Shown piece by piece: positions 3,192 to 13,704 of a DNA stretch of 32,000 nt. Both the position numbers and the translations under genes were made by a program. Source of the stretch: Dickeya dadantii NCPPB 898. GTDB taxonomy: Bacteria > Pseudomonadota > Gammaproteobacteria > Enterobacterales > Enterobacteriaceae. The notes beneath the pieces are model-generated. The model was not told the origin of the DNA. It saw only the letters and a list, made by a program, of their open reading frames with translations, and searched no databases. Within the stretch, counting starts at the first letter, position 1; every line of letters starts with the position of its first letter. The stretch covers positions 958,505 to 990,504 of the forward strand of contig NZ_CM001976.1 of assembly GCF_000406145.1 (NCBI RefSeq), read 5' to 3'.

Positions 3192-4385
3192 TCAGCCTTT
3201 TTTCGGCATGCGGGCGAAGCTCACCATCAACTGTACGCCGTTAATCAGCACCAGCAGCGCGGTGACCAGAAACACCCAGCGGTAGCCCAACGTGGCGGAA
3301 ACGGTAGAGCCGAGCAGCGGCCCGACCACGTTGCCGAGATACATGCAGGATTGGTTATACCCGAAAATGCGGCCGGTCACCTGCTGGCTGCTGTATTTCA
3401 CCAGCAGCGCCTGCACCGCCGGCATCAGCGCGCCGTCGGCGAAACCCAGCGCGAAGCGCAAAATCCCGAGCTGAACCGAGCTTTGCACCGCCGACATCAG
3501 GAAGAACAGCAGCGCGCACAGGAACAGCGCCACGATCAGCACCCGCTGGGAACCGATGCGATCCCCCAACCGGCCGAGGCGCGGCGCGGACAACAGCGCC
3601 GACACTCCCGGCACGGCGGCGATAACGCCGCTGATAAACGCGATATTATCAATGTTGGGGGAGAGGTCGCGGATAAACAACGTCAGGATCGGGCTGATGG
3701 AGCCGTTCGCCATCTGAATCATCATGGTGGTGAAGCACAGGCTGACAATCAGCAGCGGATAAGGCAGCGAGGCGAACACCGCCCGGCCGCTGAGCTGCGC
3801 TTTTTTGCTGACGGTAACGGCATTTTCACGGATGGCGAACAGCGTGATGAGAAAGCAGATAAACAACATGGCGGAGGTGACGAAAAACACCATGCGCAGA
3901 CCGATGGTATCGGCCATGAAGCCGCCGAGCAGCGGACCGATCAACACCCCCGCCACCTGCCCGGTGGACAACGTGCCGAGCGCCCAACCGCTGCGGCTAC
4001 GCGGCACCTGCGAGGCAATCAGCGCCATGGCGTTGGGAATGTAGCCGGAGGTCAGCCCCATTAGCGCGCGCAGGATAAACAGCTGCCAGACGTTGGTGGC
4101 CATGCCTTGTAGCGCCATGACGATAGACATACCGAGCGCGGCGCGCAGCAACATCAGCTTGCGGCCCTTGCGGTCGGCCAGGCTGCCCCACAGCGGCGCG
4201 ACAATCGCCGAAATCAGAAACGAGGAACTGAACACCAGCCCAGACCACAGATTGAGCGCGGTGTGATCGCTAACGCCCAGATGTTCGATGTAGAGCGGCA
4301 GGAACGGCAGTATCTGGCTCATGGCCATGCCGGTGAAAAAACATCCCAGCCAGGCGGAGAAAAGGTTGAGTTTCCAGGTTTCCAT
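3192..4385 (-). CDS. mdtG: MFS multidrug efflux transporter MdtG (YceE)
   Basis: The 397-aa ORF aligns along its whole length with my recollection of E. coli MdtG. Shared stretches include WLGCF.TG..., [58 protein letters not shown] and GRIF.YNQS. Confidence 0.9.
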
Positions 4386-4616
4386 AGGGCAGGTTTTTAC
4401 GTCGTCAGTGAAAGGCCGGGTCGCTCCCGCGCCAGTGCCACGCTGAATTACGCGACACCGCTAGTATGGCCGCTTTTGTCTTAGCCGGGAAATAATTTTA
4501 TATATCAAAGAATAATCCAACCCCGGTGATTGATGGGTTTTTGGTTGCAAAGCGGTCGTCGAACACACTGTGGTGCCCAGATAAACAAGAAAACCAAAAC
4601 GTGATTCTGAATTTTT

Positions 4617-4632
4617 TGTGATTTGAATCACA
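4617..4632. promoter_or_regulatory. near-consensus CRP (cAMP receptor protein) binding site
   Basis: TGTGAtttgaaTCACA matches TGTGA-N6-TCACA perfectly. The palindrome extends to 9-bp arms (ttttgtgat / atcacaaaa, 4614-4635). It lies between divergent mdtG and the small ORF. Confidence 0.6.
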
Positions 4633-4638
4633 AAAGTG

Positions 4639-4667
4639 TTGCGTCAGGATTCAACAAAACGTACAAT
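4639..4667 (+). promoter_or_regulatory. candidate sigma70 promoter for the small ORF
   Basis: TTGCGT (4639-4644), a 17-nt spacer, then TACAAT (4662-4667). It is about 45 nt upstream of the GTG at 4715. The CRP-site centre would fall near -49, which is a non-canonical spacing. Confidence 0.35.
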
Positions 4668-4714
4668 CTTTTACCAGAAAGTTCACAAATCATTCATTAG
4701 CCAAGGTGATCGAC

Positions 4715-4792
4715 GTGCGTAAATTCCTGAAAAAACTTCTGGTCGCTTACATCAATGCTTACAAAGACATCCCGCCGGGTGCCATGCATTAA
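4715..4792 (+). CDS. candidate small protein (25 aa), MRKFLKKLLVAYINAYKDIPPGAMH
   Basis: GTG start preceded by AAGGTGA with 5-nt spacing. The TAA stop is at 4790-4792, and a strong intrinsic terminator begins 24 nt downstream. It is below the ORF-track size cutoff. I recall no homologue. Confidence 0.4.
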   Translation: MRKFLKKLLVAYINAYKDIPPGAMH

Positions 4793-4815
4793 TTGCCCTG
4801 AGCAGACCAAAATTA

Positions 4816-4854
4816 AATAAGAAGGCCGCTATGACAGCGGCCTTCTTATTTTTC
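4816..4854 (+). terminator. rho-independent terminator (15-bp stem)
   Basis: aataagaaggccgct / atgac / agcggccttcttatt followed by tttcg. The A-tract/T-tract symmetry suggests it could act bidirectionally. Confidence 0.75.
4822..4844. repeat. copy 1 of a perfect 23-bp direct repeat (aaggccgctatgacagcggcctt)
   Basis: An identical 23-mer recurs at 5801-5823, 979 bp away. Confidence 0.9.
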
Positions 4855-4985
4855 GTTAGGTATGAACATACAGGCGGGCTGTAATTTCTTGGGTTATTGC
4901 GTCTGTTAGGGCTGGAAGATGGGTTCAACCGCGTAGCAGCAGCGGTGGGCCGGGTGCTATTGTTTAAATTGGTTAATAAACACAC

Positions 4986-5654
4986 ATGGTTTTTGATATT
5001 ATCAATCTTAACAAAGTACAACAGGCTATGCTTACAATGTCACCAGTCCTCAACGATAGCGGGAGTTTTGATATGGCGATTCTTCCAATGTCATATAGTC
5101 CTGCCACTATGGCGCGGGAATACCGGAAAATTGGCGAAACGGGTGTGAACGGTCGTGCGGTGGATATTTATATTCACAGTGATCGGCACCATGCAGTGGC
5201 AATATATGGCGAACCCGATGACGTTGATGGTGATTTACGGCATGTTGTGGTAGCAAAGATTGACCTGAAATCCCGTAACAGCGACGACGAAACCGAAACT
5301 ATTTTGGCTGTCATCGGTTATTACGAGAATCTGCAACCGGTGAATACCCATCCTGCCCAGGTTGAAGGCGTGATTGTCGCCAAGCGTGAACGAAACGCCA
5401 ATGTCGCCAGCGCCATGTATAAGGCGCTCATTAACGACGGCATTGTGCTGGTTAGTGATAACCTTCAATTCCCTGGAGGGAAAGCACTATGGGCGCGTAT
5501 GGCACGTAAAGAGATGGGTATTGATGGTTTGTATTCGACTCAGAACGGCGTGCTTTCTGGCCGTATGACGGTGAACGGATCCGATACGATGGCCGCAGTA
5601 TTCCAGAGAGCGACATCTGGAGTCTTGCGCCGAATGAATCGCGAAAAGGGGTAG
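4986..5654 (+). CDS. hypothetical protein (orphan; weak GNAT-like motif only)
   Basis: Track ORF of 222 aa. The best translational start is probably the ATG at 5073 (MAILPMSY...), which follows GGGAG with 7-nt spacing and gives 193 aa. The gene is visibly AT-richer than its flanks. The segment VIVAKRERNANVASAMYKALINDGIVLVSDNLQFPGGKALWARMARK loosely resembles an acetyltransferase motif-A region. I recognise no confident family. Confidence 0.6.
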   Translation: MVFDIINLNKVQQAMLTMSPVLNDSGSFDMAILPMSYSPATMAREYRKIGETGVNGRAVDIYIHSDRHHAVAIYGEPDDVDGDLRHVVVAKIDLKSRNSDDETETILAVIGYYENLQPVNTHPAQVEGVIVAKRERNANVASAMYKALINDGIVLVSDNLQFPGGKALWARMARKEMGIDGLYSTQNGVLSGRMTVNGSDTMAAVFQRATSGVLRRMNREKG

Positions 5655-5757
5655 TGCTGGTAGCTGAACGCAAACGAGATGAATCAGCAGTTTGATGCAG
5701 CCTCAACCTGCGCAAAAACTTGCAGCGTCTAACTTGTGGTAGAAGTTCATACCTATT

Positions 5758-5800
5758 GACAAAGTCCCTGCCGGCGAGTCAGGACTTTGTCTGTAGTTTT
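5758..5800 (+). terminator. hairpin plus T-rich tail downstream of the orphan ORF
   Basis: gacaaagtcc / 14-nt loop / ggactttgtc forms a perfect 10-bp stem, followed by tgtagtttt. Confidence 0.5.
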
Positions 5801-5828
5801 AAGGCCGCTATGACAGCGGCCTTTTTCA
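5801..5828 (+). terminator. rho-independent terminator; copy 2 of the 23-bp direct repeat
   Basis: aaggccgct / atgac / agcggcctt followed by tttc. The 23-mer is identical to 4822-4844. Confidence 0.65.
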
Positions 5829-5895
5829 TATCTTCGCTTTTTGCTTCGTCGGTTTTATTTCAACTCACGTGTGTAACGGCTCATCGTCTTGGCGA

Positions 5896-5975
5896 ATCAT
5901 AGTTTTAACAAAGCATAGTTTTAACAAATCATAGTTTTAAAAAATTATAGTTTAAAAAAATTATAGTCTTAACGA
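5896..5975. repeat. 16-bp x5 tandem repeat (consensus ATCATAGTTTTAACAA)
   Basis: The units are atcatagttttaacaa, agcatagttttaacaa, atcatagttttaaaaa, attatagtttaaaaaa and attatagtcttaacga. The last unit contains the dmlA stop codon (5969-5971). Confidence 0.9.
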
Positions 5976-7054
5976 CTCAGCGCCTGCGCAATCGCCTCGC
6001 CCAGCGCGGCGGTGTTGCCGCTGCCGCCAAGGTCCCGCGTCAGCGGCGCATTTCCCGGCCCCTGTGCCAGCACCCGTTCAATGGCGCTTAGCACCGCCGC
6101 GCCGGCGGCGTCGTGACCGAGGTGTTCCAGCATCATCGCCCCGCACCAGATTTGGCCGATTGGATTGGCGATGCCTTTGCCGGCGATATCCGGCGCCGAG
6201 CCGTGCACCGGTTCGAACAGGCTGGGGAAGGTGCGATCCGGATTGATGTTGGCCGACGGCGCGATGCCGATAGTGCCGGTACAGGCCGGGCCGAGGTCGG
6301 ACAGAATATCGCCGAACAGGTTGCTGGCGACCACCACGTCAAACCAGTCCGGGTGCAGCACGAAGTTGGCGGTGAGGATATCGATGTGATATTTGTCCAC
6401 CTTCACTTCCGGGTAGCGGGCGCTCATGTCGGCGACGCGGCTGTCCCAGTACGGCATGGTGATGGCGATGCCGTTGGATTTGGTGGCGGAAGTCAGATGC
6501 TTTTTCGGGCGTTTCATCGCTAGTTCGTAGGCGAATTTAAGGATGCGATCGACGCCGACGCGGGTCATCACCGTTTCCTGAATCACCACTTCGCGCTCGG
6601 TGCCGGCAAACATCGTGCCGCCGACGCTGGAATATTCGCCTTCGGTGTTTTCGCGCACGATGTAGAAGTCGATATCACCGGGTTGACGCCCGGCCAGCGG
6701 CGCTTTCACGCCCGGCATCAGGCGGCAGGGGCGCAGGTTGACGTACTGGTCGAATTCACGGCGGAACAGCAGCAGCGATTGCCACAGCGACACGTGATCC
6801 GGCACCACCTCCGGCCAGCCCACCGCGCCGAAATAGATGGCGTCAAAGTCCTTGAGCTGCGCGAACCAGTTGTCCGGCATCATCTTGCCGTGCCGGAGGT
6901 AGTAATCGGCGTTGGCGAAATCAAACCATTCCCACTCCAGCTGGATATCAAACAGTTCGGCGGCACGGGCGATCACCCGTACCCCTTCCGGCATCACTTC
7001 CTTGCCGATGCCGTCGCCGGGAATGACGGCAATGCGGTAACGCGGTTGAGACAT
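5969..7054 (-). CDS. dmlA: D-malate dehydrogenase (decarboxylating) / tartrate dehydrogenase, isocitrate-isopropylmalate dehydrogenase family
   Basis: The track ORF runs 5969..7333, but the real start is the ATG at 7054 (MSQPRYRIAVIPGDGIGKEV...), which follows AGGAG. The 361-aa product closely matches my recollection of E. coli DmlA/YeaU. Shared stretches include FDAIYFGAVGWP, FRREFDQYVNLRP, DFY.VRENTEGEYS, LTSATKSNG, VVASNLFGDILSDLGPACTGTIGIAPSAN and SLFEPVHGSAPDI. Confidence 0.9.
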   Translation of the reverse strand: MSQPRYRIAVIPGDGIGKEVMPEGVRVIARAAELFDIQLEWEWFDFANADYYLRHGKMMPDNWFAQLKDFDAIYFGAVGWPEVVPDHVSLWQSLLLFRREFDQYVNLRPCRLMPGVKAPLAGRQPGDIDFYIVRENTEGEYSSVGGTMFAGTEREVVIQETVMTRVGVDRILKFAYELAMKRPKKHLTSATKSNGIAITMPYWDSRVADMSARYPEVKVDKYHIDILTANFVLHPDWFDVVVASNLFGDILSDLGPACTGTIGIAPSANINPDRTFPSLFEPVHGSAPDIAGKGIANPIGQIWCGAMMLEHLGHDAAGAAVLSAIERVLAQGPGNAPLTRDLGGSGNTAALGEAIAQALSR

Positions 7055-7175
7055 GGCAACTCCTGAACGGTTTTTCTGATCGATTGCACTTGGGTAACAG
7101 AGAGTGTATTTATTCTGTTCGATGTAAACAATTTCGCTTCCGGTAAAGGCATTGTTGAATAAAAGAGAAGAATAA

Positions 7176-8132
7176 ATGAGTGCAATCGACGATTTGTTGT
7201 TCTTCAGCCGTATCGCCGCGCTTGGCAGCCTGACGGCGGTGGCGCGCGAAAGCGGGTTATCGCTGCCGGCCGTCAGCAAACGGTTGACGCAACTGGAGCA
7301 ACGGTTGGGGGTACAGCTGATCAGGCGTACCACCCGGCGGTTGGATTTAACGCCGGAGGGGCAATTGTACGCCGAAGGTGCGTTGCCGATTCTGCATGAA
7401 ATCGAAGAACTGGAAAGTCAGGTTCGCCGTAACCAGCTAACGCTGCGCGGGCGGCTGACCGTCAATGCGTCGTTCGGTTTCGGGCGTCGCCATATTGCGC
7501 CGCTGATTTCCGCCTTCGCCCGTCAGCACGGCGAGCTGGAAGTGCAGTTGCAGCTCACCAGTCAGCCGCTCAACATGCTGGACGCCGGCGTGGATATCGA
7601 TATTCGCTTCGGCGCGCCGCCGGACTCGCGGCTGGTGGCGCATCGGCTGATGGAAAATCCGCGGGTGCTGTGCGCCGCGCCGGCTTATCTGGCGCGCTGC
7701 GGCACGCCGCAGACGGTGGCGGATCTGGCCGGGCACAACTGTCTGGTGTTGCGTCAGTACGAGAGCGACTACGGTTTATGGCGTTTTTACCGCGACGGCC
7801 GCGAGTTTACCCACCGTGCTTTCGGCAATCTTTCCGCCAACGACGGCGAGGTGATCATGCGCTACGCGCTGGACGGGCACGGCATTATCCTGCGTTCGCT
7901 GTGGGATGTGCGCCCCTGGCTGTCCAGCGGCGAGCTGGTGGCGCTGTTGCCGGACTACATCATGCCGGAAGCGGATATTTACGCGGTCTATCAGCAGCGT
8001 CGGCATGTGCCGGCGCGCATTTCCGCGTTTATCGTCTGGCTGAAACAGCAGTTGCTGCAAGGGGAGGAAGGCAGGCCGCGCCTCCCCGGCGGGGAAGCGC
8101 GGAGAATTACTGGCGCACCAGACGGCCGGTAG
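7176..8132 (+). CDS. dmlR: LysR-family transcriptional regulator, divergent from dmlA (DmlR-like)
   Basis: 318-aa ORF with an N-terminal LysR HTH ([45 protein letters not shown]). It is arranged divergently from dmlA, like E. coli dmlR-dmlA. Its 3' end overlaps queF convergently by 26 bp. Confidence 0.82.
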
Positions 8133-8949
8133 CGGCTTCGGTTTCGAAATTGCTGCGGAACGGGTTGATGTCCAGACCGCCGCGACGGGTATAGCGGGCG
8201 AACACGGTCAGTTTTTCCGGCTGGCAGTAGCGCTTGAGGTCATTAAAGATACGCTCGACGCACTGTTCGTGGAATTCGTTGTGCTGGCGGAACGAAATCA
8301 GGTAACGCAGCAGCGCTTCCCGGTCGATTTGCCGGCCCTCGTACTTGATGACCACGCTGCCCCAGTCCGGCTGATAGGTAACCAGACAGTTGGACTTCAG
8401 CAGATTGGAACACAGGGTTTCCGCAACCACCGGCGCCTTATCGCGTACCGCATGCTGCAGATAATCCGGGTTGAAGCCGTAACCGTTCACTTCGATGTCC
8501 AGCTCGTCAATGTTGATGCCGGGTAGGGTATCGATCTGCGACGGGTAGCCGGTCAGGCCTGGGTACAGTGTGACCTTGACGTCGCCGTTGGCGGCGGCGG
8601 ACAGATCTTTGATCAAGGTAGCATGCACTTCGCCGATGTCGCGAAAGCGGGTCTGGTTGAAGCTGTTAAGGTACAGCTTGAACGATTTGGACTCGATCAG
8701 GTTTTCCGAACTGGCCGGGATGATGAATTCGGCGATGCCCACCAGCGGTTTTCCCTTGTGGTTGAGCCACGACAGCTCGAAGGCGGTCCACAGATCGTAA
8801 CCGTCAAACGGCAGGTCCGACCCGGTCAGGCCGACCAGATCGCGCCCGCGGGCGCGCGGCAGCGCTTCCAGCAGCGTCGGGTCGTATTTGTCCGGGTAGC
8901 TGGAGCGCACCCCCAGATGGGTAATGCTATCGTTTTCTGTAATATGCAT
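8107..8949 (-). CDS. queF: NADPH-dependent 7-cyano-7-deazaguanine (preQ0) reductase
   Basis: The 280-aa ORF closely matches my recollection of E. coli QueF/YqcD. Shared stretches include [65 protein letters not shown] and [16 protein letters not shown]. Confidence 0.93.
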
Positions 8950-8954
8950 ATCGC

Positions 8955-9830
8955 TCAGTTCCTTGCTGGTACGGGTATGGCATGAATGTATTTTCTGAAC
9001 AGCCTGCGGGTACCGTAAATAGGGCCGACGCCCAACACCGCATAGACCACTTTGATCAGAAATTGCGACAGGATCATGGTGCGGATCACGTCAGAACTCA
9101 GCACATTATAAAACGCGATGGTGCAGAAAATCACACTGTCGACGGCAGAGGCGGTGACCGTGCTGGTGATCACGCGGATAAACAGGTAGCGGGACTTGGT
9201 CAGAATCTTGATTTTGTGCAGCACCCAGGCATTGATGTTTTCGGAGATCAGGTAGGCCAGCGATGAGGCCACCAGCACCGCCATCATGCTTTCGACGATG
9301 CCGCTATAGGTCTTGCTGTATTCCCATTCCGGCAAGCCGGGGATCAGGCTGGTGACCCACAGCCCGAGCACAAACGCCAGATGGAAGAAAAAAGCGATGA
9401 GAATGGTGCGGCGCGCCAGCCGCAGCCCATAAAATTCATTCAGAATATCCACCAGAATAAAGGTCAGCGGGTAGACGAAAACGGCGGGGGGCACGACCAG
9501 ATTCAGGGCCGGAATAAATATTGGTTTGACGCCGCTGACGGTGGAAAAAATATAAATGACGCAAAGCGCGGCGGTAATGATGAGGTATGCCAGCCAGGAT
9601 CGTTCGTTTCTGTCGCTGATGTCGTAGGCGGTGGTGATGTCTTTGCCGGAATAGAGTTTTTTGTACAGAGCATTGAGTTCGTGCCGGCTTAGGTCATCGG
9701 AGATTTCGCTGTCGACCAGTTCCTTGAGATCCATGTGGATCATCTTGCCGGTCGATAACACCATGATATTGGCTGACAGTTCGCCGCTGTGGTTGAACCC
9801 CAGCAGCTTGAATTTCCTGTTTGCATCCAT
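8955..9830 (-). CDS. YhhQ/DUF165 (VUT) family queuosine-precursor transporter homologue with an N-terminal extension of about 80 aa
   Basis: In the 291-aa ORF, residues from about 80 to 291 are a multi-TM region. It resembles E. coli YhhQ from memory (P.TF...D.L.E..G...ARR.I; SL.AYL.S...), including positively charged loops. The ATG at 9830 directly abuts the TAA of the upstream gene and follows AGGA with 5-nt spacing, so the extension appears to be translated. Confidence 0.78.
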
Positions 9831-10451
9831 TTATATCCTTTCCTCTATGATATATCCCAGCAGGACTGCGTCCTCGGGGCGTTTTCTGTCTGCCATGTCC
9901 GGCGAATCCGGGATGTCGACAAAAAATCCGGTGGCAGGAGAGTGACAGAGTATCGGCGTATCCGGCACCAGCGCAGGCGGCCGTTTGATGATGAGCAGCG
10001 CGCCGGGGTAGAAAGCGTCGCCAATCGGCGATTCGATCTGTACCGCCACCATGTTGGATTCCTCTCCGAAGAAATAGGTCAACGGATATTGAACCGCTAA
10101 CTGACCAATCTTGTGCTGCCGTGCCAACAACAGTTGCGACTGCGGAACGATGGGAATCGCCGCCGGGTTTTTATTGCCTTCAAAAGAGACGGTATTGTTC
10201 AGGCGCTCGACCTTTTCCAGATCGTAATCTTCGATTTCCTCACAGGACACGCCGAAGAAATCGGAAATACGATTGATGGTGGATTGCTGAACCTTGTTTA
10301 CCCTACCTTCAAGAATTTTGTAGATAGTGGTGCGCGTTACCCCGGTACGATTAGAAAACGAGGCTTTGGTTTCGCCTCGGGTACGCATCAGATATTCAAT
10401 ATTTTTAATGATATTAGTTTTGCGCTGAGCATTCGTTGTTTTCATGGTCAT
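9831..10451 (-). CDS. XRE/Cro-CI family HTH regulator with a C-terminal LexA/CI-like (S24-like) beta domain
   Basis: 206-aa ORF. The N-terminus carries the HTH KASFSNRTGVTRTTIYKILEGR...STINRISDFFGVS. The C-terminal 100 aa or so (VAVQIESPIGDAFYPGALLIIKRP...LLGYIIEE) resemble the S24 fold. I see no G-D-S-M context and no conserved Lys, so it is probably not self-cleaving. Confidence 0.78.
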   Translation of the reverse strand: MTMKTTNAQRKTNIIKNIEYLMRTRGETKASFSNRTGVTRTTIYKILEGRVNKVQQSTINRISDFFGVSCEEIEDYDLEKVERLNNTVSFEGNKNPAAIPIVPQSQLLLARQHKIGQLAVQYPLTYFFGEESNMVAVQIESPIGDAFYPGALLIIKRPPALVPDTPILCHSPATGFFVDIPDSPDMADRKRPEDAVLLGYIIEERI

Positions 10452-10670
10452 CCCTTCTCAGGTCAGTTCTCAGACAGGTTCATCTTACGATAAAGCGTTA
10501 CGTTCACCTATGCCGCCGGAAAGAAAAAAATCGGCAACCGCGGCGTGTAGCGGGCATGTATGACGGAGAAAAACAGGGGGGATAGTATGAACTTATTCAG
10601 TTTATTGGTGGTTGCTGTAATGGCGCCGTTAAAAATAGACACTAAAGATCATAATGTGTCCATTAATCTG

Positions 10671-10698
10671 TTGACTTGACTGTTTTTATTGCTATAAG
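10671..10698 (+). promoter_or_regulatory. candidate strong sigma70 promoter in the AT-rich intergenic core
   Basis: TTGACT (10671-10676), a 16-nt spacer, then TATAAG (10693-10698). It points rightward into an ORF-poor stretch that ends at a hairpin (10893-10914). Confidence 0.35.
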
Positions 10699-11108
10699 GT
10701 TTAGAAAAATTAATTAATCTGTGTGATACAGATAATTTACTATAACCATAAGATATAGTTAATAAACTAATTGGTTGTTTCTGACGTCACTGACGCAGAC
10801 CACCATCAATCCGACACCAGGGAACCCAGAACGGACGCTTAGCAGAGAGGTGAGAAAATAAGGGAGCGTCATTATCGATGACACACGCCGACGACGCTGC
10901 GCTTTGACGCAGCGTTGGCGTTTCTGGGGCTATTTGCCGCCAGCCACATCAATCTCCAGTCAAATTAATCTCCGGTCACCTATCACGTCGCTGGCTTGAT
11001 CTTGATCCGACAGCCGCCCGCATGGATATGAATATCGTTATAAAGAAAGACGGGCGTTCCGCGCCGACCTGATGCCGACGCGGGACGAGGCGTGATGAGC
11101 GCTGCGGG

Positions 11109-12839
11109 TTATTGCGGCGTTTCCGTCAGCGTAATGGCGTCGTACATCACCATGCCGCCCAGCAGTTCCAGCGTGATGCGGTTGCCGCCCTGTTGCAGTG
11201 CGCCCGCGGGCAACGGAATATGCGCTTCATGGTAACGACCGCTTTGCATGGCGCCCCGGTAGATGGACTTATCGTTGTCGTACTTCAGCGTGGTCAGCAA
11301 CTGGCCGTTGAGCCTCACCGCCAGTTGCGGTGAACTGGCCGGCGTGGTCATGCCGTTGTTGCTGGCGGCGGCGATAGCGATATTCAGGGTGTAAGGCTGC
11401 TCGGGCGTGCGGGTGTTGAACAGGATATGCCAGCTACCCGGTTGAGTCTGGGCGTAGTACCAGTCCTTACGTTCGCGGCTTTTGCCGATCTCGAAGATCA
11501 GGTCGGCCGGCACCTCGGTTTGCCAGCGATACTGACGTGGCTTGTCGCCGAAGCGGAACTCGTCGGCCCGGCGGTCGGCCTGACCGATGGCCCATGCCAG
11601 CGGCGCAGGTTGCTGCGCGTCAATTTGGCCGAGTCGGGTTTTCTTGCCTTCTACCCGCACGGTTTGTTGCGCCAGCAGGCCGATTTGCGTGCCGCCATCG
11701 GCGTAGGCCGACAGCCGATATTCACCCGGCGGCACATTGCTCAGGCTGAAACGGCCGTCGCGGTTGGTGCGGGCGCTGAACAGGTAACCGGTAGTCTGAA
11801 TATCAAAGTTTTCCGCGCTGCTGTTCAGCACCACCGTGGCGTGAGGCGCCTCGGTGCGCAGGCGGCCGCTGACGGTGGCGCGCTGGCGTGGATAGCGCGC
11901 ATCGTCCAGCCAGCGGTAGGGCCAACTGGCGCGCTCATGCTCGGCCCGGCGGCTGACGTCCGCCACCAGTTCCCGGTCGTTGCCCTGATTGATGTACAGC
12001 AGCCACGGACCGTAGAGTTTCTCAAAACCCGGCTGCGCCACCATATCCGGGGTGCCGAAGTGAGAACCGGTAAGATAGTTCAGGATAATCGCGTCCTGAT
12101 GCACCAGCAGTTCCTGTTTCAGCGCGTCGCCTGAGTAATACTCGCCGCTGGCGGGCACCATCCAGGCGCCGTAACCGTTGCCCATCACCCCCCAGTAGCG
12201 GCTTTCGCGTTGATAACCGGCAAAGTCGTATTTGGAGTAGACGCTACCGTCAGGCAACCGCCAGGTTTCATCCTGCACTTTCGGCAACTGCTCCAGTTCG
12301 TCGTACAGTAGCGGCGTGCCGCGCCGGATGCTGTTGAACAACGTGTCCAGCCGGGTGGCGTCGAAACGGTAAACGTTGCGCAGTTCGCTGACCGTCACCG
12401 GCGCTGAACCGGTGTTGGCGGCCACCACATAACTGTAAAGGCCGCTGACGTCGCGGGTCATGATCAGGTGATATTCCAGCCGCAGTTTGCCGTTCTGGTC
12501 GTCGATATAGGCCAGATGGACCTGATCCGGCGTCTGTTTGATCACCTCCAGTCGTTCCGGCACGAATTCGTTGACGCCGCCGGAGTAGTAATCGAGGTAA
12601 AAACTGCGGTTTTTATCCGGATCGCGCGCCGCGCCGGAGAGGCGGGAAATCAGGTTGGTGCCGCCTTTCCACACTTCCTTCGCGCTGCCGTCCGCGCCAA
12701 AGCGGACTTTCAGCAGCCCGTTGTCCAGCGTACTGTTCATGCCGTCGAGCGTCAGTTTCACCGCGCCTGTCGCCGTCAGCGGCAGCACGAATATCAGTGT
12801 CAACAACGGGGTACGCCATGCCTGCAGAGGTTTATTCAT
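11109..12839 (-). CDS. rhiE: rhamnogalacturonan (RG-I) lyase, polysaccharide lyase family 4, RhiE-like, secreted
   Basis: The track ORF runs 11109..12902. The probable start is the ATG at 12839 (MNKPLQAWRTPLLTLIFVLPLTATGA/VKL, a signal peptide), or 12845. The size (about 576 aa) and the three-domain beta-rich sequence (...GRFSLSNVPPGEYRLSAYADG...) fit PL4 RG lyases such as Dickeya dadantii RhiE. This is from memory. Confidence 0.8.
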   Translation of the reverse strand: MNKPLQAWRTPLLTLIFVLPLTATGAVKLTLDGMNSTLDNGLLKVRFGADGSAKEVWKGGTNLISRLSGAARDPDKNRSFYLDYYSGGVNEFVPERLEVIKQTPDQVHLAYIDDQNGKLRLEYHLIMTRDVSGLYSYVVAANTGSAPVTVSELRNVYRFDATRLDTLFNSIRRGTPLLYDELEQLPKVQDETWRLPDGSVYSKYDFAGYQRESRYWGVMGNGYGAWMVPASGEYYSGDALKQELLVHQDAIILNYLTGSHFGTPDMVAQPGFEKLYGPWLLYINQGNDRELVADVSRRAEHERASWPYRWLDDARYPRQRATVSGRLRTEAPHATVVLNSSAENFDIQTTGYLFSARTNRDGRFSLSNVPPGEYRLSAYADGGTQIGLLAQQTVRVEGKKTRLGQIDAQQPAPLAWAIGQADRRADEFRFGDKPRQYRWQTEVPADLIFEIGKSRERKDWYYAQTQPGSWHILFNTRTPEQPYTLNIAIAAASNNGMTTPASSPQLAVRLNGQLLTTLKYDNDKSIYRGAMQSGRYHEAHIPLPAGALQQGGNRITLELLGGMVMYDAITLTETPQ

Positions 12840-13170
12840 GTGCATCGTCCATTTGTCTTGTGATGTGTGGTGCGTTGTAGGGAGAGGAATACAGCAGTAC
12901 ACAGCCTAACGCGGTGATGAATGGCGCTCCTTTGTTGGATGGTCATCCGCGGGGCGAAGGTGGCAATAGCGCGAAGATCGGCGCGATCGGGATCATATTT
13001 GTCGATTCGGATGGTGTGGGGCTGCACTTGGGCTATTGGCGGTATAATTCGGTGAAAATCAGGTTATTTTTTTTAAAATCAACAAATTATATCGATAAGT
13101 AATTGAATAACACTCCGCTGCGGTTTTTCGCTATTATGCATTCCTCTCAAACCTGTACCTGATAGGCGCT

Positions 13171-13704
13171 ATGGAACGTTTTCTGGAAAATACGATGTAC
13201 GCTGCACGGTGGCTGCTGGCTCCGGTTTATCTGGGGTTATCGCTGGGATTACTGGCGCTGGCCATCAAGTTCTTTGAAGAAATCTGGCATGTCCTGCCGA
13301 ACATCTTTTCCATCGCGGAATCCGATCTGATCCTGACGCTGTTGTCGCTGGTGGATATGACGCTGGTGGGCGGGTTGCTGGTGATGGTGATGTTTTCCGG
13401 CTATGAAAACTTTGTGTCGGCGCTGGATATCGGCGAGGACAAGGAGAAGCTGAACTGGCTGGGCAAAATGGACGCCAGCTCGCTGAAAAACAAAGTGGCG
13501 GCGTCGATCGTGGCGATTTCGTCCATCCACCTGCTGCGGGTGTTCATGGATGCCAAGAACGTACCGGACAACAAGCTGATGTGGTATGTGATCATCCACC
13601 TGACTTTTGTGCTGTCGGCCTTTGTTATGGGCTATCTGGATTGGCTGTCCCGCCACGAACATCATGCCCATCATGGCGCCGACAAGGCTCAGGATAAGCA
13701 TTAA
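13171..13704 (+). CDS. yqhA: UPF0114 family inner-membrane protein YqhA
   Basis: Nearly identical over about 160 aa to my recollection of E. coli YqhA ([22 protein letters not shown]...[40 protein letters not shown]...). It carries an extra His-rich C-terminal tail. Confidence 0.93.

Follow-up and report, generated by a model that had tools for sequence, protein, structure and literature searches.

Membrane proteins of the YhhQ/QPTR family import the queuosine (Q) precursors preQ0 and preQ1, or queuine (PMC5372724, PMC10723273). Q genes, yhhQ and queT have been described as riboswitch-controlled (PMC11625349), and E. coli yhhQ in particular has been placed under a type III preQ1-I riboswitch (PMC10622847, PMC11625349). 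Here, we describe a locus of Dickeya dadantii NCPPB 898 in which a transporter of this family with an additional N-terminal domain is encoded between the gene of a DNA-binding regulator, probably shaped like the phage repressor CI, and queF, the gene of preQ0 reductase. The locus lies in a 32,000-nucleotide (nt) stretch of contig NZ_CM001976.1 (positions 958,505 to 990,504, forward strand), which was analysed as a whole and is called the window below; Dickeya coordinates are those of the window.

A QPTR transporter that carries a new domain, has a CI-like regulator of its own and is linked to queF or queC is a new combination. The searchable literature covers only import by YhhQ/QPTR proteins and riboswitch control of yhhQ, queT and queCDEF; it holds no description of the extended transporter subfamily, its regulator, the module, or any protein regulator of Q genes. 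A preliminary description of the window had not recognised such a module as described either. Our preferred reading, held with moderate confidence, is that the locus represents a mobile cassette for 7-deazaguanine (preQ0-centred) Q-precursor salvage under its own repressor and not under a preQ1 riboswitch. It is thus a candidate for the first protein-based, rather than riboswitch-based, control of Q-precursor salvage.

The regulator-transporter pair and its partner genes

In the preliminary description, the regulator gene, the transporter gene and queF were packed head to tail on the minus strand. Every particular of that layout can be read from the sequence (Table 1): the open reading frames (ORFs), the AGGA, the TAA of the regulator directly abutting the ATG of the transporter (0-nt spacing), and the 5-nt gap before queF. 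Because the three genes are packed so tightly, they probably form one transcript in Dickeya. The regulator ORF opens at 10451 and encodes 206 amino acids (aa), and a second ATG at 10445-10443 would give 204 aa; since most homologues have the latter length, the true start is probably at 10445. The queF product scores 388.9 bits against TIGR03138 (cut-off 293.45) and matches both PF14819 (QueF_N) and PF14489 (QueF), which makes it a standard type II two-domain QueF.

The association with Q genes is not confined to Dickeya, and the regulator-transporter pair is widespread among gamma-proteobacteria. A survey covered 89 loci, 80 of them from a one-genome-per-species scan and nine from assemblies and plasmids. 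The regulator gene stands directly upstream of the transporter gene in all 89 (80/80 in the genome scan); the two genes abut in 40 loci (gap of 0 nt), overlap in 18 (58/89 together) and are at most 39 nt apart in 88/89. In 49 of the 89 loci queF follows immediately, and in every one of these 49 the spacing between transporter and queF is -23 to +13 nt. The queF-linked loci span at least 10 genera (Dickeya, Lonsdalea, Serratia, Erwinia, Pantoea, Izhakiella, Winslowiella, Rouxiella, Xenorhabdus, Cedecea, Moritella and an Arsenophonus plasmid) and include two plasmid types, from Arsenophonus and Cedecea. In another 21 loci, namely 20 from Pseudomonas and one on a plasmid of Serratia SCBI, the gene downstream is queC, in convergent orientation and at a distance of about 10-120 nt. 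When the transporters are placed in a neighbour-joining tree, those linked to queC form one clade and those linked to queF make up the rest. The pair thus co-occurs with Q genes well beyond the locus from which the preliminary description proposed a link. One locus, from a record titled Pseudomonas lundensis strain I31, departs from all the other Pseudomonas loci: it shares 72% identity with the query and shows queF in the Serratia-type arrangement. This assembly may be mislabelled or contaminated.

The extended transporter is also encoded on 24 plasmid records (Serratia 12, Vibrio 6, Arsenophonus 5, Cedecea 1), 10 of which are typed as conjugative; some of the six Vibrio records are megaplasmids or chromids. 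Among 50,697 phage records there is no full-length copy of either the regulator or the transporter, the regulator finding only generic helix-turn-helix (HTH) matches, and none of 5,426 complete E. coli genomes gave a match to the cassette in a DNA search whose sensitivity extends to about 65-70% identity. The chromosomal loci have ordinary metabolic neighbours, with no integrase or prophage genes nearby. A prophage origin of the cassette is excluded. The preliminary description's idea of an acquired cassette therefore holds in the broader sense that the unit is carried by plasmids, and fails in its prophage-type version, for which a full-length phage copy is missing.

Base composition is in keeping with an acquired unit. 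As the preliminary description had noticed, the upstream pair is richer in AT than queF, although the difference is mild (GC content 0.498 for the regulator, 0.522 for the transporter and 0.584 for queF). At third codon positions (GC3) the values are 0.589, 0.716 and 0.769, with 0.76-0.83 in neighbouring genes, a gradient that fits an old acquisition partly adjusted to the host.

The plasmid copies sit in varied surroundings. On the F-type plasmid of Serratia sp. SCBI (NZ_CP003425.1; positions 5893-8571 of the examined locus), the interval from traM to traA, which holds traJ and traY on the F plasmid, is occupied by the regulator, the transporter, a convergent queC and a divergent HTH_3 gene of 120 aa. 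The rest of the Serratia plasmid has no DpdA/TGT or other Q genes, which makes a plasmid-borne DNA-modification pathway unlikely. On one Arsenophonus plasmid the genes for the regulator, the transporter and QueF overlap, and a type IV secretion operon lies next to them. The pair adjoins a TrbC/VirB2 pilin operon on plasmids of both Arsenophonus and Vibrio. A plasmid-borne regulator might also act on transfer genes. On the Cedecea neteri plasmid NZ_CP023526.1 (positions 4381-8149 of the examined locus), guaD, which encodes guanine deaminase, directly follows queF in the same direction, an addition that hints at further processing of a guanine-like compound.

Insect symbionts with reduced genomes (Hamiltonella, Regiella, Arsenophonus and Serratia symbiotica) have retained the cassette, and this retention fits a salvage role. 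In some symbiont plasmids the cassette is decaying: on the Arsenophonus nasoniae plasmid NZ_CP123548.1 (positions 3412-7612 of the examined locus) the transporter gene is split by the transposase genes of an insertion sequence, so that a 57-aa remnant of the N-terminal domain remains next to the regulator and the core stands with queF 2 kb away.

Domains of the transporter and its regulator

The transporter passes the thresholds of its family and fails that of the E. coli protein. It matches PF02592 (Vut_1) over residues 116-271 (E 5.6e-41; 140.9 bits, cut-off 27.2) and TIGR00697 with 99.1 bits (cut-off 50.95), the latter alignment beginning only at residue 79. Against NF008406/PRK11212, the 221-position equivalog model of E. 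coli YhhQ, it reaches 27.9 bits where the cut-off is 252. Since this model aligns to residues 109-274 only, the extension lies outside the E. coli-type protein. Judged by these profiles, the transporter belongs to a separate subfamily of the QPTR/YhhQ family, its core being preceded by about 80 residues, much as the preliminary description had pictured it (a DUF165/YhhQ core plus an extra N-terminal domain). Dickeya-type transporters resemble E. coli YhhQ and other QPTR proteins (COG1738, PF02592) in their six-helix membrane core, in passing the family thresholds and in their association with Q genes. They differ from E. coli YhhQ in failing the equivalog model, in adding an N-terminal domain of about 60-80 residues, and in always being preceded by a dedicated protein regulator. 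Homologues are 285-300 aa long and cover 96-100% of the query; the closest come from Dickeya, with 99% identity to a protein of D. fangzhongdai, and an exact-sequence look-up of the Dickeya protein returned no record.

Is the extension really part of the protein? A start at an internal Met, which the preliminary description had considered, is not supported. Thirteen positions within the first 80 residues are invariant in 18 homologues, ranging from Dickeya to Pseudomonas and Moritella (46-49% overall identity), and the invariant residues K6, K8, L9 and F12 sit upstream of any internal Met. Over codons 1-62, the ratio of nonsynonymous to synonymous substitution rates (dN/dS) is 0.046 in the comparison with D. 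oryzae and 0.014 in that with D. undicola, lower than the corresponding values for the membrane core (0.124 and 0.031). Considering the invariant residues ahead of the internal Met and the low dN/dS, the N-terminal extension is translated and constrained, under strong purifying selection.

In an AlphaFold2 model, the N-terminal domain (approximately residues 6-60) consists of three strands followed by three short helices, with a predicted local distance difference test score (pLDDT) of 75-82 over residues 1-60; a disordered linker (residues 63-74) leads to six membrane helices. From the positive-inside rule and the even number of helices, the domain should be cytoplasmic. It matched no Pfam family, and a fold search of the whole-transporter model against the PDB gave nothing below E 0.39. 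A profile search with the N-terminal domain through 1.84 billion representative proteins gave 42 matches at E<=0.001. All of the strong ones are members of the extended-transporter family or fragments of them (truncated or frameshifted copies). The weakest few are multi-stretch matches in proteins of 940-2204 aa, and the one inspected was a repetitive protein; we take these as spurious, and the domain would then be unique to the extended-transporter family. Candidate free-standing proteins consisting of the domain only (short representative matches and matches on Arsenophonus plasmids) proved to be frameshifted, truncated or split by insertion sequences.

The regulator begins with an HTH (HTH_26 over residues 17-76, E 1.4e-9; HTH_3, E 3.8e-5) in which T39, R40, T42, Y44, I46, L47 and G49 are nearly invariant. 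Its AlphaFold2 model (pLDDT 85.5) consists of a five-helix HTH (helices within residues 7-75), a linker helix and a seven-strand beta domain. The best Foldseek matches in the PDB are 7jvt and 3bdn (lambda CI, lambda-186 hybrid repressor; E ~1e-5), with further matches to LexA (3k2z, 1jhf) and to the isolated C-terminal domain of lambda CI (2ho0, 2hnf; TM 0.41-0.47). Among predicted viral structures, nearly all of the top 20 matches are annotated as CI/LexA-like repressors, aligned over 215-255 columns with E down to 1e-8. The regulator is thus probably, but not certainly, CI/LexA-shaped, with an S24-like C-terminal fold. Another class of regulators, combining an XRE HTH with a cupin, is represented by 1y9q from Vibrio cholerae, the fourth-best PDB match of the model (E 4e-4). 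Like the regulator, these proteins have a small, potentially ligand-binding beta-rich domain behind an XRE HTH, but the match is weaker than those to CI and LexA, and the strand-order motifs of the regulator read more like S24.

Conservation within the family bears on what the C-terminal domain could do. The family comprises 81 full-length homologues (from a search of 5.8 billion clusters) of uniform length, mostly 204 aa. Alignment of 28 homologues shows G92, N95, P96, A98, P100, G116, F128, G199 and E204 to be invariant; no Ser or Lys within residues 92-206 is invariant or nearly so, and the catalytic dyad is therefore not conserved. The linker has a conserved segment, G-N-x-N-P-A-A-h-P, and no conserved Ala-Gly or Cys-Gly cleavage site. 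Because both the dyad and the Ala-Gly site are absent, RecA-stimulated self-cleavage would not be expected. The preliminary description's picture of a Cro/CI HTH joined to an S24-like domain without the Ser/Lys dyad agrees with the Foldseek matches and with this alignment.

Like lambda CI and LexA (XRE or winged HTH plus peptidase S24), the regulator joins an HTH at its N-terminus through a linker to a beta domain at its C-terminus, and two stretches, 'F-PGD-LIIKR' and the C-terminal 'LG-IIEER', resemble S24 strands by eye at the level of motifs. Unlike them, it has no Pfam S24 match, no C-terminal profile similarity, no Ser/Lys dyad and no Ala-Gly site, and it was not found in the phage records. 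Its C-terminal half matched no Pfam family at all, a search of PDB sequences with the regulator profile found HTH matches only, and a homologue search with the C-terminal domain alone returned the same regulator family and nothing else. As orphan domains, the C-terminal domain of the regulator and the N-terminal domain of the transporter are restricted to one and the same narrow family. In PADLOC the regulator gave only weak generic HTH matches (E 3e-4 at best) and the transporter and queF none; in PHROGs only generic HTH, Vut-core and QueF-like families were matched.

The control region and the flanks

The preliminary description had seen nothing like a preQ1 riboswitch upstream, and the control region bears this out. 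With permissive thresholds, Rfam gave no riboswitch (preQ1-I, -II or -III) anywhere in 7900-11300, and up to E=5 only a chance match to a snoRNA. RNAalifold on seven aligned leaders found no conserved structure (-3.99 kcal/mol, covariation term +0.41), with the sole exception of an inverted repeat inside the upstream block, and the possibility of a novel leader RNA was dropped on this result.

The same region contains a candidate operator array (Table 1). Of 22 representative upstream regions, 13 contain the motif GTCAACA, where 0.7 would be expected, in constant orientation and 186-262 nt ahead of the start codon. Anchored on this motif, 16 taxa give the consensus GTCAACAnAAAAGTnnACA-N15-TGTnCAC, which reads as two half-sites in direct orientation, spaced 12 bp apart, and a third that is inverted; of these, the last two make up a near-perfect palindrome with 16-bp arms in Serratia. 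In Photorhabdus, where the pair has relocated, the upstream block has accompanied it, and in Dickeya, where a lyase gene separates the block from yqhA, the two are likewise together. The half-site pattern GTNNACANAAAA is no more frequent in the window than chance predicts, and the Dickeya half-sites do not conform to it. In AT-rich intergenic DNA about 40 nt beyond the GTCAACA block, there is a perfect 6-bp inverted repeat (ATCTGT-gtgat-ACAGAT, 10717-10733, plus strand).

Nearer to the gene, TAAGAT or TATAGT stands at the equivalent place, about 35-45 nt before the start codon, in most Enterobacterales homologues, which is weak evidence that TAAGAT may be the -10 element of a promoter. A consensus promoter scan called no promoter, TAAGAT included, and terminator-like matches were at chance level. 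A divergent Cro-like gene was also sought and rejected: no opposite-strand ORF is conserved across 17 taxa, and a divergent HTH gene is found only on the Serratia plasmid.

Table 1. Features of the Dickeya cassette and its control region (window coordinates)
Feature	Position	Strand	Basis or remark
Regulator ORF	9831-10451	minus	206 aa
HTH of regulator, Cro/C1-type	10224-10403 (residues 17-76)	minus	PF13443, PF01381, PF13560
C-terminal beta domain of regulator, S24-like (predicted)	9834-10178 (residues 92-206)	minus	AlphaFold2, seven strands
Transporter, N-terminally extended QPTR/YhhQ-family (Vut_1)	8955-9830	minus	291 aa
N-terminal domain and linker of transporter	9591-9830 (residues 1-80)	minus	conservation, AlphaFold2, profile search, dN/dS
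queF, two-domain NADPH-dependent preQ0 reductase	8107-8949	minus	280 aa
Junction 1	9828-9842	minus	AGGA 9839-9836, regulator TAA 9833-9831, transporter ATG 9830-9828 (sequence reading)
Junction 2	8947-8964	minus	AAGGA 8964-8960, transporter TGA 8957-8955, 5-nt gap, queF ATG 8949-8947 (sequence reading)
Candidate operator array	10630-10700	minus	positional conservation
GTCAACA motif	10669-10675	minus	candidate operator array
Second half-site ATGGACAC	10656-10663	minus	candidate operator array
Inverted third half-site	10635-10643	minus	candidate operator array
Upstream CCTTATAGC block	10691-10699	minus	candidate operator array
TAAGAT, -10-like hexamer	10482-10487	minus	37 nt ahead of probable start codon; aligned upstream regions
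GC-rich hairpin 3' of queF stop	8076-8102	minus	13-nt arms, 12/13 complementary, without T-run; sequence reading

The flanks of the cassette are chromosomal and metabolic: an MdtG-like major facilitator superfamily protein, tartrate dehydrogenase and a TtdR-like LysR regulator, a PL4 rhamnogalacturonan-lyase-like gene, yqhA and a GcvA-like regulator. At their 3' ends, queF and the TtdR-like gene convergent to it (7176-8132) share 26 nt, and the hairpin behind queF, which a terminator scan did not call, lies within the LysR coding sequence. The lyase-like gene (11109-12845, minus strand), whose product matches Pfam PL4 domains II and III, separates the cassette from yqhA (13171-13704, plus strand). 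In Lonsdalea, yqhA is the direct divergent neighbour of the cassette, and the lyase gene thus looks like an insertion in the Dickeya lineage. Elsewhere in the window, an ORF of 222 aa (4986-5654, plus strand) in a stretch of lower GC content (0.47-0.51) has no Pfam or NCBIfam match.

A proposed salvage cassette and its alternatives

At the centre of our preferred reading, a regulated preQ0 salvage cassette, would be the two genes that always travel together, for the CI/LexA-shaped regulator and the N-extended QPTR/YhhQ transporter. To judge from its association with queF (49 loci) and queC (21 loci), the transporter most likely has preQ0 as its substrate; preQ0 would be the theme shared by the two genes, since QueC makes it and QueF consumes it. 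In Dickeya, imported preQ0 would be reduced at once by QueF to preQ1, which TGT would insert into tRNA. The queC clade (Pseudomonas, Serratia plasmids) suggests uptake of a compound one step earlier, 7-carboxy-7-deazaguanine (CDG) or 7-amido-7-deazaguanine (ADG), or else a link to the preQ0 pool. The regulator probably controls its own synthesis from the GTCAACA-centred half-site array upstream, and a 7-deazaguanine signal would relieve or strengthen this autoregulation. Its S24-like domain, having lost the catalytic residues, may serve oligomerisation, signal sensing or both, instead of self-cleavage. Repression by the regulator, its sensing of a 7-deazaguanine and the import direction of the transporter are what we infer. 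Such a cassette would resemble the riboswitch-controlled yhhQ, queT and queCDEF units in matching the expression of Q-precursor transporter or enzyme to precursor supply, but there is no riboswitch at the Dickeya cassette, and a DNA-binding protein would be in control.

How might the regulator sense its signal? Mlc-PtsG and MalT-MalK provide examples of regulators controlled by contact with a transporter. By analogy only, the two orphan domains of the cassette share a phyletic distribution and their genes are translationally coupled. Perhaps the N-terminal domain of the transporter and the dead S24-like domain of the repressor are a co-evolved signalling pair, in which the transporter reports 7-deazaguanine occupancy or flux by sequestering the repressor at the membrane or releasing it. 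We offer this idea as a speculation to which we assign little weight. If true, the pair would be the first protein-based sensor for Q precursors, and on Serratia-type conjugative plasmids the same switch, in the slot of traJ and traY, could couple precursor availability to transfer functions.

Several observations weigh against a regulated salvage cassette. Nineteen loci (Photorhabdus, Mixta, E. tasmaniensis, one metagenome-assembled genome and a Vibrio plasmid) have no adjacent Q gene, the Photorhabdus pair sitting between uvrB and bioD; these cases are nested among the queF-linked majority in the tree, which suggests secondary relocation. Where the partner is queC, it is convergent and hence not co-transcribed with the pair. 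De novo synthesis of Q is probable in hosts such as Dickeya, Serratia and Pseudomonas, and the benefit of a salvage cassette, or of an extra plasmid-borne queC or queF, is then less evident. Since the transporter falls short of the equivalog threshold for E. coli YhhQ, orthology gives no basis for assigning its substrate, and the YhhQ/QPTR family is itself heterogeneous (PMC5372724, section 2.4). On the regulator side, the S24-like assignment comes from predicted structure only, with modest TM-scores (0.25-0.47), and hhalign against lambda CI and LexA (reference sequences entered by hand) gave no signal in the C-terminal domain. As for the operator, a per-sequence test of the inverted repeats against shuffles was mostly not significant in this AT-rich region, and for this reason we call it a candidate, on positional conservation only. 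The GTCAACA motif, seen in Enterobacterales, is absent from the Pseudomonas and plasmid versions, and it could instead be the -35 element of a divergent promoter (TGTTGAC on the opposite strand, with TTGAC).

Of the alternatives, the one that survives best, while in our view still unlikely, is that the transporter carries some other purine-like compound or works as an exporter, in detoxification or exclusion of toyocamycin-type 7-deazapurines or of excess preQ0, with QueF or QueC modulating the pool rather than serving tRNA modification. The failed equivalog model leaves room for this, as do family subgroups with different substrates (PMC5372724, PMC10723273), and preQ0 is a scaffold for antibacterial deazapurines (PMC11625349). 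Moreover, conjugative plasmids enter hosts that presumably make Q already, so that a conditional or defensive benefit would fit better than housekeeping salvage, and guaD lies downstream of queF on the Cedecea plasmid. However, all characterised members of the family import Q precursors (PMC5372724, PMC10723273), QueC and QueF converge on preQ0 as product or substrate, and the keeping of the cassette in reduced symbiont genomes fits nutrient uptake.

It seems distinctly improbable that the regulator is mainly an immunity or maintenance repressor of mobile elements, or a regulator of transfer genes, with the transporter and queF or queC as mere cargo and nothing related to Q being sensed. The CI/LexA-like fold, whose best structural matches are phage repressors, would suit such a role, and so would the traM-traA position of the Serratia cassette with its divergent HTH_3 gene, the pilin operons beside the Arsenophonus and Vibrio cassettes, and a regulator GC3 well below that of the neighbours. 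It is difficult to reconcile with a regulator that is never without the transporter in the 89 loci and whose family (81 matches) is as narrow as the transporter subfamily. The phage records, which hold only generic HTH matches, the ordinary metabolic genes around the chromosomal copies, where integrase and prophage genes are missing, and the lack of PADLOC defence matches all argue the same way. Chance adjacency, the preliminary description's own alternative of an unrelated prophage-type repressor and membrane-protein pair inserted beside the Dickeya queF, could appeal to the mild compositional difference from queF and to the genera in which the pair has no Q-gene neighbour, but it is effectively refuted by the survey, with queF within -23 to +13 nt in many genera and two plasmid types, queC adjacent in a separate clade and a transporter from the Q-precursor transporter family.

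If the regulated salvage cassette is real, its own DNA-binding regulator would add a protein-based solution to that of the preQ1 riboswitches, and would provide a handle on how Q-precursor uptake is tuned in proteobacteria without them. The system is small, consisting of three genes and a control region of about 300 bp. The module also defines a clean, narrow subfamily within the heterogeneous QPTR/YhhQ family, and its linkage to queF or queC by clade can help to assign substrate specificity (preQ0 versus CDG). Finally, the conjugative and symbiont plasmids that carry a private queF or queC suggest that the supply of 7-deazaguanines is a traded, selectable trait.

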